The notes: a model not told the origin generated them from the letters alone. A stretch of DNA of 51,121 nucleotides from Bacteroidota bacterium (GCA_026391915.1 JAPLCZ010000168.1:1-51121); one strand, 5' to 3'; shown: positions 15,072-21,608, counted from the stretch's first letter. Translations and numbers: made by a program.

Positions 15072-17096
15072 TTATTTGATAACACTTAAGCGCTGATTAG
15101 CTACTTGGTCACCAACTTTTAAAGTTACCATATACATACCTTGAGCAAGGTTAGAGGTATTTACATCAAGGTTGTAGTTACCTTCTGTTAATGTTTTACC
15201 ATCAGCAATAGTAGCAACTTTTTGACCCATCATATTGTAAACTTCTAAGGTTACTGCTTTATTACCTTTTACATTAAAGTTAACAGCAGTTTGCCCAATG
15301 GCAGGGTTTGGATACATCTCAAATTTGTAATCGTTATTGGCATTAGCAATTGAAGATGCTTCATCAAGATTGATTTGGTCAATCCACATAGCATTACCTC
15401 CATCACCAGGGATACCAGAAACTTTTACTAATACGCTTTTGCCTTTGTATTTAGCCATGTTTACACCTACCCAAACATATTCGCCAGATTTAGGAACATA
15501 TAGAGCATTAGCAGCAGTTGGTTTTCCAGTTTCAGTACAAGTAACATCACTGATTTTTTTCCAGTTTACACCACAGTCTTCAGAAACTGCAACCTGAATA
15601 GTAGGGGCTGTGCCACCGTAGCTTCCGCTTGCAGATACATTACCTTTATCAGAATAAGCATAAAAATAAGTAAGCATAGGAGCTTGAATATTTGAGAGGT
15701 CAGCTTCTCCAAAAAGAATATCACCTGGTAAACCAGCAACATTCCATGAACTATGAATATTGAAAAGAACTGCACCTTTAGAGCCATCTGCACCAATGCC
15801 AGTTGTGGTTCCAACTAACATTGATACTCTTGGATTCTGAGTTAAATCAAACGCAAAGTTTGCAGGCATAGTACCATCAAACCCACCTAATACAGATGTA
15901 ACAGCATTTTTAGCAAAGCCAATTCCCGTTAAACCATAGTTGTCGTTTGATTCGTCAGTATCAAATAAGCTATCATTATTTACATTTTTAAAACCAGTAA
16001 TGTTTAGGTTATAGTAACCGCCAGATGTAAGAGTAATATCACCCCAATCCATAGTTGTTTTTGCGCCTTTAGCCAAACTACCTGTAAATGTTTTGGTATA
16101 GTCAGTACCATTGATATTAGCTGTGATATCAAAAGTTGTAATAACGTTTGACATATTATTTACCACCTCAACTTTAGGATGAAGTGAAGCAACACATAAA
16201 CCAGTTGGTGTAGCAGTTTGATTGCTTAAAGCCAAATCTGTTTTCAAAGCCGCATCAAAATCTACAGGTGCTTCTCCACCTGAAAGAATATTTCCTTTAC
16301 CTTCTGATACAAATGCAACAACAGTTAATTTATTGAATTTAACGTCAATACTTTTTAGTTGTGCAGGTAAAGTAACTTTATAAGTTTTAGAGGTTAATTG
16401 ACCTTTTCTTGTAGAATCTACTGCATCACCAAAGTCAGCGGAGGTAAGCAACATACGCAAAACGTGATTATGCTTATATAATTTTTTACCATTAACGGTT
16501 ACCCAATTGGTTGGGTTATAATTTCCGTAATCTGATTGTGGACCTAAGATACCATCTTCCAAAAGATAAACGGTAAGATAGTTAGTTGCTTTAGGGCTAT
16601 TAGCAGTATAATAAACTTCAACATCCGCAGTAAGCTCTCTTGTTTTTGGGTCAATAGTAGCTTTAACACCAATGTTTACAGGGCTTGTTTGGCTAGTTAT
16701 TTTACCAGCTTCACCAGTCCATTGACCTCTGTCGCAAGCGTAAGTACTACCTTGCATAACGGTGTTAGGGGTAACTCTGTTTACCATTCCTTTTGGGTAT
16801 CCACCACCACCAGTATAGCCATCAATAGCATCACCCGTAGAAGTACGGAAATCGGGCTCACCAGCACCTGGAGTTGCATATCCACCAGAGTGGATATTAA
16901 CCAAAATGATTTTGCCGCTATTTGCTGCAACTAAATCATTGGCTCTTTTGTGTCCATCAGGGCAATAACCGCAGTGTATGCCAGTGAACTCTTCAAGTAT
17001 CACTTTCTTGTTTTCAGAAGAAGTGCTTACAATTTTTTGGGCATTCATCTGCATTGCAATAAATGAAATAACGCCCAAAAGTAAAACTTTTTTCAT
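15072..17096 (-). CDS. Omp28-related thioredoxin-fold protein with T9SS CTD
   Basis: EEFTGIHCGYCP, HNHVLR, and CTD MYPNP..GMYMV..RLSVIK. Confidence 0.9.
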   Translation of the reverse strand: MKKVLLLGVISFIAMQMNAQKIVSTSSENKKVILEEFTGIHCGYCPDGHKRANDLVAANSGKIILVNIHSGGYATPGAGEPDFRTSTGDAIDGYTGGGGYPKGMVNRVTPNTVMQGSTYACDRGQWTGEAGKITSQTSPVNIGVKATIDPKTRELTADVEVYYTANSPKATNYLTVYLLEDGILGPQSDYGNYNPTNWVTVNGKKLYKHNHVLRMLLTSADFGDAVDSTRKGQLTSKTYKVTLPAQLKSIDVKFNKLTVVAFVSEGKGNILSGGEAPVDFDAALKTDLALSNQTATPTGLCVASLHPKVEVVNNMSNVITTFDITANINGTDYTKTFTGSLAKGAKTTMDWGDITLTSGGYYNLNITGFKNVNNDSLFDTDESNDNYGLTGIGFAKNAVTSVLGGFDGTMPANFAFDLTQNPRVSMLVGTTTGIGADGSKGAVLFNIHSSWNVAGLPGDILFGEADLSNIQAPMLTYFYAYSDKGNVSASGSYGGTAPTIQVAVSEDCGVNWKKISDVTCTETGKPTAANALYVPKSGEYVWVGVNMAKYKGKSVLVKVSGIPGDGGNAMWIDQINLDEASSIANANNDYKFEMYPNPAIGQTAVNFNVKGNKAVTLEVYNMMGQKVATIADGKTLTEGNYNLDVNTSNLAQGMYMVTLKVGDQVANQRLSVIK

Positions 17097-17260
17097 AATT
17101 TGTGTGTGTTTGTTTTTTGTTAATTTGGCTGCAAGTTAAGAATAAGTATAAAAACAAAATAATTTTTTAATTTTTTTTTCGTTGGGTATCGCTTTGCGAG
17201 TTGTTGCCAAAAAATTTTCATCTTAACATTTAACTTAAAATAATAAACTACTTTTGCTAA

Positions 17261-18193
17261 ATGAAAAGATACTATCCTTTCAAGATTGAATTTAAAATTG
17301 CCTCTCTGGGGCTTCTATTGGTGGTTTTCTTTACCTCTTGCCAAAAAGAAACTATCATTCATGAGAACGCTACTGTGCATAAAGATACCACTATCAGTGG
17401 GAATAAGGCACCGATTTATGACGGGGTAAGTAGCCTCCAAATCCAAACCTATATTAACAGGATGTATATAGATTTGATGGGCAGAAAACCTACAGATACA
17501 GAATTGAATTCCGGTTTCAATACACTAAAAGCAAATCCTCACTCTGATGTTTTGAGGGAAACTGTCATCAACACCCTTTTAAAAACGGATGCTTATTATA
17601 GGAGATTTTATGATTACATAAGTGATAAACTCATCAACGGGGCGGATAGTGCTGACATCTCTGAGAGGATTTATATTTATAAATATCTGCTTGGCAACTA
17701 CACAAAAACAGGAGAGAAATACTATGTAAATTATCTGAACATAGAAATTAAGAATCTGCAAAGCCTGATGAATTGCACTGATAATTATAAACAGAAAAAG
17801 TTTGGGATTGATAGCGTTTATAATTTCTTTTTGGTGAGTTATTTTTATGACCAGATTAATATGGGCAACGAAAATTTTGTGAAGGCTTGTTTTGAAAACC
17901 TCCTCTACCGCGACCCCACCAAAGAGGAATTGCGTTACGGAAAAGATATGTATGATAACAAAGCCGGAATCCTTTTCAGGGAAACAGGCATTTGTAAAAA
18001 TGATATTATTAAAATCATCACTAAGCAAGATGAATTTTACCAAGGATTGGTGATTGACGCCTATCTTTCCTTCCTTTTGCGGAAACCCAACACAGCAGAA
18101 ATTTCTGTGGATGCTAAAGAATTGATAGCATCAAAACGATTAGAAAATTTAAGAATCAAACTACTAAAATCTAAGGAATATGCGGGCTTTTAA
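17261..18193 (+). CDS. Lipoprotein with repeated helical YxxL(L)xRxP motifs (DUF1549/DUF1800/DUF4214-like)
   Basis: Lipobox FTSC; RMYIDLMGRKPT, FENLLYRDPT and YLSFLLRKPN. Confidence 0.75.
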   Translation: MKRYYPFKIEFKIASLGLLLVVFFTSCQKETIIHENATVHKDTTISGNKAPIYDGVSSLQIQTYINRMYIDLMGRKPTDTELNSGFNTLKANPHSDVLRETVINTLLKTDAYYRRFYDYISDKLINGADSADISERIYIYKYLLGNYTKTGEKYYVNYLNIEIKNLQSLMNCTDNYKQKKFGIDSVYNFFLVSYFYDQINMGNENFVKACFENLLYRDPTKEELRYGKDMYDNKAGILFRETGICKNDIIKIITKQDEFYQGLVIDAYLSFLLRKPNTAEISVDAKELIASKRLENLRIKLLKSKEYAGF

Positions 18194-18698
18194 AAGAAAT
18201 ATCCTCTTAGCTTTTTTGTTGGCTTTTGTTTTTGCTTCTTGCAAAAAAGAAACTACAGAAAAGAAACAAACGATTGTTTATGACAATGTGATTTATCATG
18301 TGGATACCATTCCTGTTTATAAATCGGCAGCAGAAAAGACAAGACAAAAAACAGCAAACCAATACTATTCAATTCTGTATTCTGATTTATTTCAAAAATC
18401 AATACCTAGTAAAGAATTGGCTGACCTCACTCAACTAAGCTTAAGTATTGGAGATAAAAAATTAGTGAATGAGATGATGATTAAAAACTACCTCATCACT
18501 GCTATTATCCCAACAGATGCTGAGATGCGAAAGGACATTGATAAATTTATCAACCTTACTTATCTGAAGTTTTATCTGCGCAAACCCACACAATTGGAAT
18601 TGTATTTTTTTAGAGATATGATTACCAATGACACCAAAGTTACCCCAACAAATATCTATACCTCTTTCACACTTTCAAACGAATACTTATACTACTAA
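18180..18698 (+). CDS. Lipoprotein, shorter relative of the upstream helical-repeat protein
   Basis: Lipobox FASC; YLKFYLRKPT. Overlaps the upstream gene by 14 nt. Confidence 0.75.
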   Translation: MRAFKRNILLAFLLAFVFASCKKETTEKKQTIVYDNVIYHVDTIPVYKSAAEKTRQKTANQYYSILYSDLFQKSIPSKELADLTQLSLSIGDKKLVNEMMIKNYLITAIIPTDAEMRKDIDKFINLTYLKFYLRKPTQLELYFFRDMITNDTKVTPTNIYTSFTLSNEYLYY

Positions 18699-18702
18699 AC
18701 CC

Positions 18703-20034
18703 ATGAAAAGGAGACAATTTATAAGAACCTCTGCCCTTGCTGCTGCAGGAGTTGTTGTTGCGCCATACATCCTCCCAAGTGGGAGGTTATTTGCCGCGAC
18801 AGGTACGCGCTTAGTGAACCATGTGGTCTTTGTTCTTTTTGGTGGTGGGTTGAGAATTCAGGAAACTGCACTGCAACAATATTTAGCCAATCAGGGGTTG
18901 GCAACACAAGGAAATATCCTCCCTAATTTATTTTCTGGGGCGCAACCTTCTACCAATTTAGTATATAGCAAATGGACTCCTGCCCTCAGCAAACCATTAG
19001 CTAGCTATGGAACTTTGTTTAAGGAAATAAGTTATAAAACAGGCCCTACAGGTCACTTTAATGGGCATACTGTTGCCATGACGGGAAACTACACTAACAC
19101 TCAATTAGACTTAAGAATTAACCCAGACTCACCTACTGTTTTTGAGTATTACCGCAAACATACTGACCCCGCAAAAAGTGCAATAAATGCATGGTGGCTC
19201 TCAGAAGGTTTAGGCCCATACACCGCATTAAACTATAGCCGTCATGCAAATTATGGTGCTGACTTTGGTGCCAATTTTCTTAGCCCTGTAACTACTTTTA
19301 TTGGGCAGGGAAGCAAGTTGGCAAACACTCCCGACTTCCAGGCGGATGATGTTTTGAGGATAGACAAAGCACTAAATTTTTTGGATAATAGCTTTGACAA
19401 AGCAGGTAAAAATTTACCGGGTATTGTAAATAGTGAGGCTGACAAAATCAAGATTGAACAGTTTATAAAAGATACCATTAACAGAACTCAGCAAAGTAAA
19501 ATAAATTTTGCTTTGCCATCAGGGGTTAATCAAAGTGAGCTTACTGGAGACCTGCTAAATATCACTTATTCATGGGAAGTGATAAATGCTTTTGAACCAG
19601 AATTGATGGTAGTAAATACTTTTAATTCGGACATCTGCCACTCTGATTTTTCATCATACATACAGAATATGCATAAGGCAGATTATGGGGTAGGTTGGCT
19701 ATGGAATAAAATCCAGAATCACCCAAAACTAAAGAATGATACCATCATGATTTGTATGCCAGAACATGGCAGAAATGATGTTGCCAATAACCTCTATGAC
19801 AGCAATGGATTAAAGGCTTATGACCACACATCAGATGATAACTCAAGACGTGTTTTTGCTATTGTTGCGGGTCCTTCTTCCGTTGTAAAACAGGGGCAGG
19901 TTTTGGGTAGTGCAGGCAGCCCTGCCGGTGAAACTATTGACATCATCCCTACCATTGCGCACATTTTAGGTTTTGAGAAAGACATCCCAAGCGGTATGCT
20001 TGGCGGCAAAGCTTTAACGGCAGCTTTTAATTAA
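18703..20034 (+). CDS. Tat-exported DUF1501-like / alkaline-phosphatase-superfamily protein
   Basis: Start moved to MKRRQFIR (twin-arginine). Motifs VVFVLFGGG, GHFNG, SDICH, MPEHGR, YDH and IDIIPTI resemble DUF1501/AlkP metal-binding elements. Confidence 0.72.
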   Translation: MKRRQFIRTSALAAAGVVVAPYILPSGRLFAATGTRLVNHVVFVLFGGGLRIQETALQQYLANQGLATQGNILPNLFSGAQPSTNLVYSKWTPALSKPLASYGTLFKEISYKTGPTGHFNGHTVAMTGNYTNTQLDLRINPDSPTVFEYYRKHTDPAKSAINAWWLSEGLGPYTALNYSRHANYGADFGANFLSPVTTFIGQGSKLANTPDFQADDVLRIDKALNFLDNSFDKAGKNLPGIVNSEADKIKIEQFIKDTINRTQQSKINFALPSGVNQSELTGDLLNITYSWEVINAFEPELMVVNTFNSDICHSDFSSYIQNMHKADYGVGWLWNKIQNHPKLKNDTIMICMPEHGRNDVANNLYDSNGLKAYDHTSDDNSRRVFAIVAGPSSVVKQGQVLGSAGSPAGETIDIIPTIAHILGFEKDIPSGMLGGKALTAAFN

Positions 20035-20043
20035 TTTTCAAAG

Positions 20044-21012
20044 ATGAAGAAAAAACAATTATTCTTCTTTGCAATTATTGGATTTGCCATTGCGGTTGCC
20101 TGCAATAAAAAGGAAACTGTTGATAAAGGAACTACCAAAGGCACATTGCCCATCAACCCTTATGACACCATTCACCCAACCTATCGCCCACCTGTAGATG
20201 TGAAATTGGATACCTCTACCATTGCCGGATTACATGCCTATATCTTTAGTAAAAAATGTGCAATGCCAGCCTGCCATGATGGTGCTTTTGAACCTGATTT
20301 CCGCACTGTGGAATCTTCTTACAACACCCTTGTTTACCATAAACCCGTAAAATATGATTGGGCAGGGAAACGCTATAGTTACCGTGTTTATCCATTATTG
20401 CCTGATAGCAGTTGGCTGCATGTGCGGGTAACTACTGACGATAAAGTTTTGGGAAGAATGCCTCTTTATGCTAACGCCCTTACCCAAAAAGAAGTGGACG
20501 CTATAGACCGTTGGATTAAAAATGGGGCAAGAGATTTTCTTGGAAACTCACCTGCCATCCCAAACTATGAGCCGACCATTTATGGTGTTTATGCCGAGTT
20601 GCCTGATGCCAAAAATTACAGGGTAGATACCATAAGAGGCAAGGTGCCCATCTATCCTTTTTACATCCCCAAAAACACAAACGTAACCATGTACTTCTGT
20701 ATTTACGATGACAAAACATTGCCCTATTTTTTAACTTATAATAAGATAAAATTCTCCACCTCTCCCACAGATTTTAGCAATGCAATAACCAAGGATTTAA
20801 CCTTTCTCACAACACCAGTTACCTTGCCTGTATATAATAATGTGAAAGTGCCTTTTTACTTTTCTATAAAGATAAACACCAACCTCTTTAAGCCTGGAGA
20901 TTTAGTATATATGCGCTATTATGTTAAAGATGCTGACCATAGTTCGCCATCCGAATTACCGGCAAATGCTTATCTCATGCAATCCTATTTTTCATTTCAA
21001 GTTGGGAATTAA
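20044..21012 (+). CDS. Lipoprotein with Planctomycete-type cytochrome c-like domain plus beta-rich C-domain
   Basis: Lipobox AVAC; CAMPACH (CxxxxCH), GRMP, and LTQKEVDAIDRWIKNGA. Confidence 0.72.
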   Translation: MKKKQLFFFAIIGFAIAVACNKKETVDKGTTKGTLPINPYDTIHPTYRPPVDVKLDTSTIAGLHAYIFSKKCAMPACHDGAFEPDFRTVESSYNTLVYHKPVKYDWAGKRYSYRVYPLLPDSSWLHVRVTTDDKVLGRMPLYANALTQKEVDAIDRWIKNGARDFLGNSPAIPNYEPTIYGVYAELPDAKNYRVDTIRGKVPIYPFYIPKNTNVTMYFCIYDDKTLPYFLTYNKIKFSTSPTDFSNAITKDLTFLTTPVTLPVYNNVKVPFYFSIKINTNLFKPGDLVYMRYYVKDADHSSPSELPANAYLMQSYFSFQVGN

Positions 21013-21025
21013 AACATTCACGCAA

Positions 21026-21045
21026 TCCCGAAACTTCGGGACTTT
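21026..21045. repeat. Short REP-like palindrome
   Basis: aatcccgaaacttcgggact. A related cccgaa/ttcgg hairpin lies near 47494-47508. Confidence 0.5.
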
Positions 21046-21071
21046 AACTGCTTAGAAAACCTGATATTATT

Positions 21072-21608
21072 ATGAGAAATAAAATTAACCCAAATACAGA
21101 TAAATTGACATCGGAGTACAAGTCCCCTTCAGGGGATTTAGGGGTATTAATTTTTACCCTTTTTCTCTTAAGCATTTTGCTAAACTCCTGCACAAAAGAG
21201 GAGAAAACCATCAACACAGAAACGGATAAAAAACCTGCCCCTAGCATTACCCCAACTATTAGTTTGCAGTCTGTCAATCCAACCACAGTAGTACAGTTTA
21301 AAGACTCCATCATATTCAATATTAAATATAATGATGGTGATGGAGATATTGGTTTTGCAGAGGCTGATAGCAACACTCTTTACCTTACCGATACAAGAAA
21401 AAATCTCACTGAGGAATACCATATTGCGCCTGTTGCACCTATTGGCGTTAAGATATCTGTAGAGGGTATTTTAAGAATAAAACTTGAACACACGATACTA
21501 CTTTCAGGTACTACTCAAGAAACAACTACCTACACAATAAAGTTGCGTGACCGTAGCGGACATTTTAGTAATCTTATCACCTCGCCAACTATTACGGTCA
21601 ATCCATAA
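21072..21608 (+). CDS. Hypothetical lipoprotein (beta-rich)
   Basis: LLNSC lipobox and a DGDGDIG motif. Last gene of the co-oriented cluster. Confidence 0.78.
   Translation: MRNKINPNTDKLTSEYKSPSGDLGVLIFTLFLLSILLNSCTKEEKTINTETDKKPAPSITPTISLQSVNPTTVVQFKDSIIFNIKYNDGDGDIGFAEADSNTLYLTDTRKNLTEEYHIAPVAPIGVKISVEGILRIKLEHTILLSGTTQETTTYTIKLRDRSGHFSNLITSPTITVNP

Follow-up and report, generated by a model that had tools for sequence, protein, structure and literature searches.

A conserved five-gene envelope operon of uncultured Bacteroidota, probably a divided relative of DUF1501–cytochrome modules

Few unexplained families of Planctomycetes and Verrucomicrobia are as abundant as the DUF1501 proteins and the PSCyt modules associated with them, of which dozens of copies occur per genome. 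Two-gene operons of DUF1800 (PF08811) and DUF1501 are widespread in Proteobacteria and Bacteroidota. DUF1501 and PSCyt1/PSCyt2/PSD1 have been described as a conserved exported module of unknown function that is possibly involved in electron transfer (PMC3542564), and a role in the use of carbohydrates in oxic water has been suggested speculatively (PMC5615132). Its hosts are Planctomycetes, Verrucomicrobia, Lentisphaerae, and some Bacteroidota (Kamneva et al. 2012, PMC3542564; He et al. 2017, PMC5615132). Here, we analyzed a cassette of five genes (g1–g5) at positions 17261–21608 on the plus strand of a 51,121-nucleotide (nt) stretch of DNA from an uncultured freshwater Bacteroidota bacterium (GCA_026391915.1 JAPLCZ010000168.1:1-51121; the whole stretch is called the window below). 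The cassette is a real, conserved, and unannotated operon. We consider it probable, with some reserve, that the five genes encode one membrane-anchored envelope complex that is a very divergent relative, split into separate proteins, of the DUF1501 + PSCyt1/PSCyt2/PSD1 modules.

An initial annotation of this locus had pointed out that DUF1501 proteins pair with PSCyt1-PSCyt2-PSD1 or DUF1800 proteins, which agrees with the literature (PMC3542564) and with examples that we verified. The same annotation had called the cassette a Bacteroidota version of such a pair. It is not the version of Bacteroidota in general, because canonical unsplit DUF1501 pairs were also confirmed in other Bacteroidota (DUF1800 + DUF1501 examples in L102 and L103), whereas the cassette occurs only patchily, in 6 of the 301 sampled Bacteroidota genomes (its own included) and in 2 of 25 from its own order.

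Layout, conservation, and family relationships of the cassette

The first gene, g1 (17261–18193), encodes a 310-amino acid lipoprotein with the lipobox FFTSC (Cys-27) and is overlapped by 14 nt by g2 (18180–18698), which encodes a 172-amino acid lipoprotein (Cys-21). A 4-nt gap separates g2 from g3 (18703–20034), whose product of 443 amino acids is predicted to be exported by the twin-arginine translocation (Tat) pathway. The lipoprotein genes g4 (20044–21012; 322 amino acids, Cys-20) and g5 (21072–21608; 178 amino acids, Cys-40) follow after gaps of 9 and 59 nt, respectively. Mechanical calling of open reading frames (ORFs) placed the start of g3 at 18628; because all homologs begin at MKRR, the start was reset to 18703 (MKRRQF). 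The lipobox cysteines are invariant within each family alignment, as are the Tat residues Arg-3, Arg-4, and Phe-6 of g3 (RR codons at 18709–18714), which has no lipobox. The five co-oriented genes, four lipoboxes, and single twin-arginine signal listed in the initial annotation were all confirmed from the ORFs and family alignments, and every motif that it had named for g1–g4 was recovered. The YxxL(L)xRxP-type helix occurs three times in g1 (YIDLMGRKP, FENLLYRDP, and YLSFLLRKP) and once in g2 (YLKFYLRKP). The g3 protein carries FGGG, Asp-310-x-x-His-313, Glu-354-His-Gly-Arg-357, and Asp-374-His-375, and the motifs of g4 are Cys-72-AMPA-Cys-77-His-78 (CAMPACH), the distal methionine in Met-139-Pro-140, and Trp-157-Ile-x-x-Gly-Ala-162 (WIxxGA).

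A pattern scan over one genome per GTDB species returned 337 species with a g3 relative, and the best 80 loci were examined. All 80 are from metagenome-assembled genomes labeled as Chitinophagales, Saprospiraceae, or Flavobacteriales (Vicingaceae and Cryomorphaceae), the few exceptions in labeling being evidently mislabeled bins. When the proteins of the window were searched against these loci with tblastn, g2 was found in 74, g1 in 70, g4 in 66, and g5 in 58 of them. The order g1-g2-g3-g4-g5 on one strand was constant across loci, most missing genes being explained by contig ends, and the median spacers at the successive junctions were 12, 21, 26, and 5.5 nt. The cluster seen by the initial annotation is thus conserved, its order being kept in most (about 60–70) of the best 80 loci and in three orders. 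Clustering of the flanking ORFs revealed no further family common to more than 13 of the 80 loci, from which it follows that the conserved unit is exactly g1–g5. None of the models in Pfam and NCBIfam applies to g3, g4, or g5, and those homologs that bear a name are called “hypothetical protein” in every case.

A second complete g1–g5 cassette is present in the same genome on contig C209 (L110 4650–8679, minus strand), and its g3 and g4 are 43 and 41% identical to the window copies, respectively. Six related genomes contain an orphan g3, for example at L015 6001–7338 between secDF and a TPR gene. All six keep g4 on another contig (L104–L109), and g5 adjoins g4 in all four loci that are sufficiently long, so that these parts stay in the genome as a set after their linkage is broken. 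In the more distant cassettes L111–L115 (g3 38–40% identical), the gene order is mostly kept; in L115, g4 has shrunk to the cytochrome domain only and g1 was not detected, and in L114 g5 was not detected. In L111 (8382–11858) and L113 (8351–11779), a protein of ∼1150 amino acids is encoded directly after g5. The one in L111 shows a weak CUB match (E 0.011), clear PKD matches, and a CHU_C type IX secretion domain.

The N-terminal domain of g4 (∼residues 55–165, nt 20206–20538, plus strand) is of the class I cytochrome c, PSCyt1-like type and contains a CX4CH motif (20257–20277) and an invariant Met-139-Pro-140 (20458–20463). The C-terminal domain (∼residues 175–322, nt 20566–21009) is a predicted immunoglobulin (Ig)-like β-sandwich. 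In an alignment of 38 g4 sequences, Cys-72, Cys-77, His-78, Met-139, Pro-140, Trp-157, and Ala-162 are invariant, and CX4CH is present in all 38 aligned members and in 60 of 61 homologs from the loci. The CXXCH of PSCyt1 is not present in the g4 family, where CX4CH stands in its place. Alignment of the g4 family with seven canonical PSCyt1-PSCyt2-PSD1 proteins by hhalign scored 97.1% (E 5e-11) for proteins of full length and 97.6% (E 3.7e-12) for the PSCyt1 region once the signal peptides had been removed. These alignments, together with the invariant CX4CH and methionine, bear out the cytochrome-type domain that had been claimed for the fourth protein, and the homology of the g4 N-terminal domain to the PSCyt1 cytochrome c domain, with a putative heme site, is firm at the level of sequence.

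A search of the 38 g4-family members with PF07635 gave two matches at E 0.046. PDB sequence searches with g4 returned nothing significant; the non-significant profile alignments were to cytochrome c6 and FoxE, with a two-residue insertion in CXXCH and the methionine of g4 placed on the distal methionine. In the structural model of g4 (predicted local distance difference test (pLDDT) score of 88.7), an N-terminal helix ends at the heme motif and a C-terminal helix bears Trp-157, followed by the β-sandwich, so that the helices flank the motif in the manner of class I cytochromes c. Foldseek with the whole model gave only weak Ig-like, cohesin, and RhoGDI-type matches, because the C-terminal domain, from which they derive, dominates the model. 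A profile search at E ≤ 1e-30 collected at least 257 g4 clusters at 50% identity. No fusion (“Rosetta stone”) proteins were found among the best 150 g4-family representatives, all of which have ∼160–340 amino acids, and hhalign found no homology between the C-terminal domain of g4 and g5.

A System I (Ccm) pathway for cytochrome c maturation is encoded in the genome, with CcmB, a CcmC-like protein, and CcmF on contig C203 (L118 4106–8794). System I is able to mature CX3CH and CX4CH variants. In surveys of cytochromes, CX4CH has been accepted as a heme c motif (PMC10734462, PMC5566968).

For g3, Pfam and NCBIfam scans recognized only the Tat signal, a weak PehA match appeared in the scan with family models, and PDB sequence searches gave nothing significant. 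The Pfam Sulfatase model was matched weakly by 8 of 30 g3-family members (best 6.9e-7). The AlphaFold model of g3 has a pLDDT of 67.6 and a low-confidence insert at residues 135–243; this insert of ∼100 amino acids is family-specific and highly conserved despite its poor modeling. Foldseek of the model against the PDB returned 64 matches at E ≤ 1e-3. All 50 listed matches belong to the alkaline phosphatase (AP) superfamily (best E 2e-5, probability 0.98–1.0, template modeling score 0.35–0.42) and comprise sulfatases, phosphonate monoester hydrolases, NPPs, LtaS/LtaP, PbgA, and PafA. The core fold of g3, as modeled, is that of the AP superfamily, in line with the AlkP-like fold that had been proposed for the Tat protein.

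The relationship of g3 to DUF1501 was assessed with nine DUF1501 proteins that were fetched with their partners from other Bacteroidota, and with a small and mixed PF00884 control of seven ORFs from related genomes. The close g3 family scored only 24–29% against DUF1501 in hhalign. After addition of six 38–43%-identical members, the score rose to 94.5% (E 7.8e-8) in local and to 97.6% in global alignment, with all motifs colinear, whereas the same enlarged query scored 0.9% against the PF00884 control. Because of this difference, we regard g3 as a very divergent DUF1501-like branch: it lies outside the Pfam DUF1501 model (PF07394; best E 0.26 with six distant g3 members), yet the alignments make a good case that it is specifically related to DUF1501. 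The g3 of L114 reads PEFGRN, which matches EFGR(T) in the alignment of the DUF1501 proteins. The gene context is also that of DUF1501, with an invariant RRxF and a neighboring PSCyt1-homologous gene, although the partner is split and divergent.

Gly-48, Gly-49, Arg-51, Glu-54, His-118, Asp-310, and His-313 of g3 are invariant even in the 38–43%-identical members, as are Asp-327, Glu-354, Gly-356, Arg-357, Asp-374, and His-375. The Asp, His, and Glu residues presumably fall at the two-metal ligand positions of NPP and AP. By contrast, the first Asp ligand position of the AP fold is Gly-Gly in g3, and the nucleophile position is not kept. Thr-116, Cys-312, and His-355 vary in distant members; Thr-116 had been considered as the nucleophile and was rejected on account of its loss there. 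The g3 family alignment lacks the C/S-x-P-x-R formylglycine motif that defines S1 sulfatases. With the classical nucleophile position unconserved, g3 cannot be assumed to transfer phosphoryl or sulfuryl groups in a purely AP-type reaction.

The g1 protein is helical, contains three xxLxxRxPTxxE units, and has an invariant C-terminal EYAGF. It matches Pfam DUF4214 (PF13946) at 1.2e-6 (28.9 bits, above the cut-off of 23.2 bits), whereas PSCyt2 (PF07583; 3.8e-4, 20.9 bits) and PSD1 (PF07587; 11.4 bits) stay below their cut-offs of 29.8 and 28.5 bits, respectively. Among 33 g1-family members, DUF4214 was matched by 27, PBS_linker_poly by 18 (best 3.2e-9), PSCyt2 by 11, and PSD1 by 3. The g1 of the window itself has no PF00427 match at E ≤ 1, unlike the 18 family members. 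Searched against the PDB, the g1 family profile matched the phycobilisome linkers ApcH (2.1e-9), Glr2806, and ApcE (2e-6), as well as rod linkers, down to 1e-3. On these matches, g1 appears better described as DUF4214/phycobilisome-linker-like. The g2 protein contains one DUF4214-like unit (YLKFYLRKPT; Pfam DUF4214 2e-3, 18.6 bits, below the cut-off). The g1 and g2 families align in hhalign at 96.3% (E 2e-9; the alignment includes both untrimmed signal peptides), and as judged from sequence the N-terminal ∼100 amino acids of g2 are paralogous to g1.

The g5 protein has 178 amino acids here and ∼150 in its homologs. No Pfam or PDB sequence relatives of g5 were found, and it is predicted to be a small β-rich lipoprotein. 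Its acidic loop YxDGDGD(L/I)G (nt 21333–21353) is invariant in the family alignment, and the DGDGDxG stretch is a candidate Ca2+-binding loop.

Proposed function and alternative explanations

If the cassette is indeed a divided relative of the DUF1501 module, g3 would fold and take up its metal(s) in the cytoplasm before Tat export. The exported protein would be held at the membrane by g1 and g2, in the role of the DUF1549/DUF1553 or DUF1800 partner. We propose that g4 is a monoheme cytochrome with His-78 and Met-139 as ligands, which may pass electrons between the respiratory chain and the substrate or the metal site of g3, with His-118, Asp-310, His-313, Glu-354, Asp-374, His-375, and Glu-54 as candidate metal ligands. 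The Ig-like domain of g4 and the g5 protein could bind a substrate or a partner. The redox coupling of g4 to g3 is what we infer from this arrangement. The redox-coupled metallo-hydrolase complex pictured in the initial annotation is hypothetical as well, and its presumed Thr nucleophile is not conserved. The initial annotation had likewise pictured a version of the DUF1501 module in which the scaffold and heme domains are split into separate lipoproteins. This link is partly supported: it is firm for the heme domain and good for the enzyme, and it is weak for the helical scaffold.

Several observations weigh against such a derivation. The g4 of the window has no Pfam cytochrome match, PSCyt1 (PF07635) included. 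The identification of g3 with DUF1501 in the initial annotation stands in the hhalign comparison but not in Pfam, because PF07394 gives no match in g3 at E ≤ 1 (cut-off 27 bits), in any protein of the genome at E ≤ 10, or in any of 30 g3-family members. Thr-116 and His-355 look catalytic in the close g3 family and are not invariant in distant members. The proposed scaffold link of g1 and g2 to DUF1549/DUF1553 is weak, with the Pfam scores of g1 below cut-off and an hhalign score of 35–42% over ∼47 columns between g1 and the PSCyt2 core motif. A kinship of g1/g2 to DUF1800 was also tried and rejected (hhalign below 1%, two DUF1800 sequences compared). The lipoproteins are rich in Lys and Glu at positions +2 to +5, with which both a periplasm- and a surface-facing orientation are possible. 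Finally, a 231-nt metatranscriptome contig identical to 20886–21116 bridges g4 and g5 and lends weak support to their co-transcription, but it is the only such contig, comes from a polyA library, and could reflect carried-over DNA.

Alternatively, g3 could be a nutrient-scavenging periplasmic esterase of the phosphatase, phosphodiesterase, or sulfatase type, with the lipoproteins serving to tether or deliver and g4 having a structural or sensing role, with or without heme, that feeds no electrons into catalysis. The AP fold with Asp, His, and Glu residues placed like the two-metal sites of NPP and AP would suit such an enzyme, as would the Sulfatase matches of the g3 family and the PehA match, and the Ig-like domains and the candidate Ca2+-binding loop could bind polymers. 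However, Thr-116 is lost in distant members, a CxPxR motif is missing, and Gly-Gly occupies the first Asp ligand position. Moreover, the neighborhood clustering of the 80 loci showed no phosphate-regulon or sulfatase-maturase gene linked to the cassette, and the invariance of CX4CH, Met, and Trp in g4, with CX4CH kept in 60 of 61 homologs and the family extending over at least 257 clusters, is hard to explain without a heme function; we consider this explanation unlikely. The unconserved nucleophile and the presence of PbgA among the Foldseek matches are also compatible with a non-catalytic module for envelope or surface assembly. In this case, the AP fold of g3 would serve for binding or sensing, and g3 together with the lipoproteins would assist in assembling or anchoring a structure at the cell surface, possibly cargo of type IX secretion. 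The periplasmic domain of PbgA/YejM is a precedent for an AP fold with a binding or sensor role. The ∼1150-amino acid protein (in L111 with CUB/PKD matches and a CHU_C domain) that follows the L111 and L113 cassettes and the Omp28-family proteins with sorting domains of the type IX secretion system (T9SS) that adjoin both cassettes of the genome would also fit such a module. On the other hand, the strict invariance of His-118, Asp-310, His-313, Glu-354, Asp-374, and His-375 points to a metal site, a T9SS neighbor is missing from the five-gene form in most loci, and Tat export together with an invariant heme motif would be unexpected in a purely structural role; we regard a non-catalytic module as quite unlikely. 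The probability of a chance adjacency of unrelated genes or miscalled ORFs is negligible. Nothing speaks for it beyond the missing annotation, and it is refuted by the order conserved in the 80 loci across three orders and the lack of any other shared flanking family, in addition to the tight spacing, the second copy, and the hundreds of members in each family.

A divided DUF1501-type complex would also allow a more far-reaching proposal, namely that g3, and perhaps the whole DUF1501 clade, is not a hydrolase but an AP-fold metalloenzyme that has lost the nucleophile and the first Asp ligand and has kept the invariant His/Asp/Glu metal site. It would act as a periplasmic oxidoreductase that is wired to respiration via the dedicated CX4CH monoheme cytochrome c lipoprotein, with the linker-type lipoproteins acting as assembly adaptors. 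We regard this proposal as quite unlikely. If it were true, an old fold would have given rise to a new class of enzymes, and the five genes would provide a tractable model for thousands of unexplained PSCyt/DUF1501 modules. The value of the cassette lies mainly in its use as a compact experimental model. It holds the same kinds of parts as the canonical modules in the form of five small separate proteins, available from at least 337 species genomes, which are easier to express, to assay for heme and metal, and to co-fold than multidomain partners of 800–1100 amino acids. The cassette could thereby make the role of DUF1501 and the planctomycete cytochromes directly testable.

Neighboring genes, expression signals, and repeats

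The neighbors of the cassette in the window are an Omp28-family T9SS protein, a GT9 glycosyltransferase, a PolX/PHP protein, and an HD protein; these are unrelated and not conserved. The Omp28-family genes that adjoin the two cassettes of the genome (window 15072–17096 and L110 3447–4577, both on the minus strand) encode proteins that combine an EEF(T/S)xxxCG(Y/F)CPDG motif with a C-terminal sorting domain of the T9SS. As a conserved partner, the Omp28 protein was rejected, being nearby in 1 of 80 other loci, and its adjacency is probably lineage-specific or due to chance.

No riboswitch was found upstream of g1. An Rfam SAM-III (SMK box) match inside g1 (17647–17726, plus strand) scored 30.7 bits against a threshold of 45 bits and was taken as chance, as was a microRNA match in the scan for RNA elements. 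A σ70 scan gave 24 predictions against 16.7 (standard deviation 3.9) in shuffled sequences, which is within ∼2 standard deviations and stems from a model unsuited to Bacteroidota promoters; the terminator scan gave 8 against 4.1 (standard deviation 2.3), also within ∼2 standard deviations. A Bacteroidota-type −7 box TAnnTTTG (tacttttg) is located at 17249–17256, 4 nt before the ATG of g1, and would point to a transcript with a very short leader or none or, alternatively, to a different start. The search for RNA runs with g3 alone found no run, and the sole transcript contig is the one at the g4–g5 junction.

The 59-nt spacer between g4 and g5 contains the hairpin TCCCGAA-AC-TTCGGGA (21026–21041, plus strand), which has a perfect 7-bp stem with no T-run after it and may act as an intra-operon processing or stability element. 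A copy of a dispersed ∼40-nt repeat is found inside the 5′ end of g5 (21108–21155, plus strand). The repeat core AAGTCCCCTT[C/T]AGGGGATTTAGGGG has 18 copies in the genome at ≤3 mismatches, compared with 0 for a reversed control. The copy in g5 encodes its unusually long signal-peptide n-region TSEYKSPSGDLGV, whereas most homologs have short N termini. Several unrelated contigs of the metatranscriptome run X1 match only the repeat stretch at 21108–21155.

Comparison with known systems

The closest described relatives of the cassette are the DUF1501 + PSCyt/PSD modules. In both, a gene for a PSCyt1-type cytochrome c domain adjoins the gene of an AP-fold protein that is exported by Tat and carries E-x-G-R-(T/N) and (G/Y)-D-H motifs, and in both the exported partners contain helical xxLxGRxPTxxE units and β-sandwich modules. 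In contrast to the canonical modules, the partner is divided into four small lipoproteins in the cassette. The heme motif is CX4CH instead of the canonical CXXCH, the helical parts are DUF4214/phycobilisome-linker-like and only faintly DUF1549-like, the enzyme has diverged beyond the reach of the Pfam model, and the cassette occurs in aquatic Bacteroidota lineages known from metagenome-assembled genomes. The DUF1800 + DUF1501 operons share with the cassette the order of a gene for a helical partner followed by a gene for a Tat-exported DUF1501-type protein, but g1 and g2 have no detectable similarity to DUF1800, and the DUF1800 pairs lack a cytochrome component.

Regarding the individual proteins, the helical domains of phycobilisome linkers (PF00427) and DUF4214 (PF13946) come closest to g1, whose family profile matched the linkers ApcH and ApcE and those of the rod. 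Unlike phycobilisome linkers, g1 occurs in a non-photosynthetic host, is lipid-anchored and exported, and is linked to an AP-fold enzyme instead of phycobiliproteins. With the members of the AP superfamily (NPP, PafA, LtaS/EptA, phosphonate monoester hydrolases, and S1 sulfatases), g3 has in common the predicted core fold and the D-x-x-H, (D/E)-H, and D-H motifs at the presumed metal-ligand positions. It differs from them in that it has no conserved Ser, Thr, or formylglycine nucleophile and has Gly-Gly at the first Asp ligand position, and in that it possesses the ∼100-amino acid insert (residues 135–243) and a Tat signal for its export.

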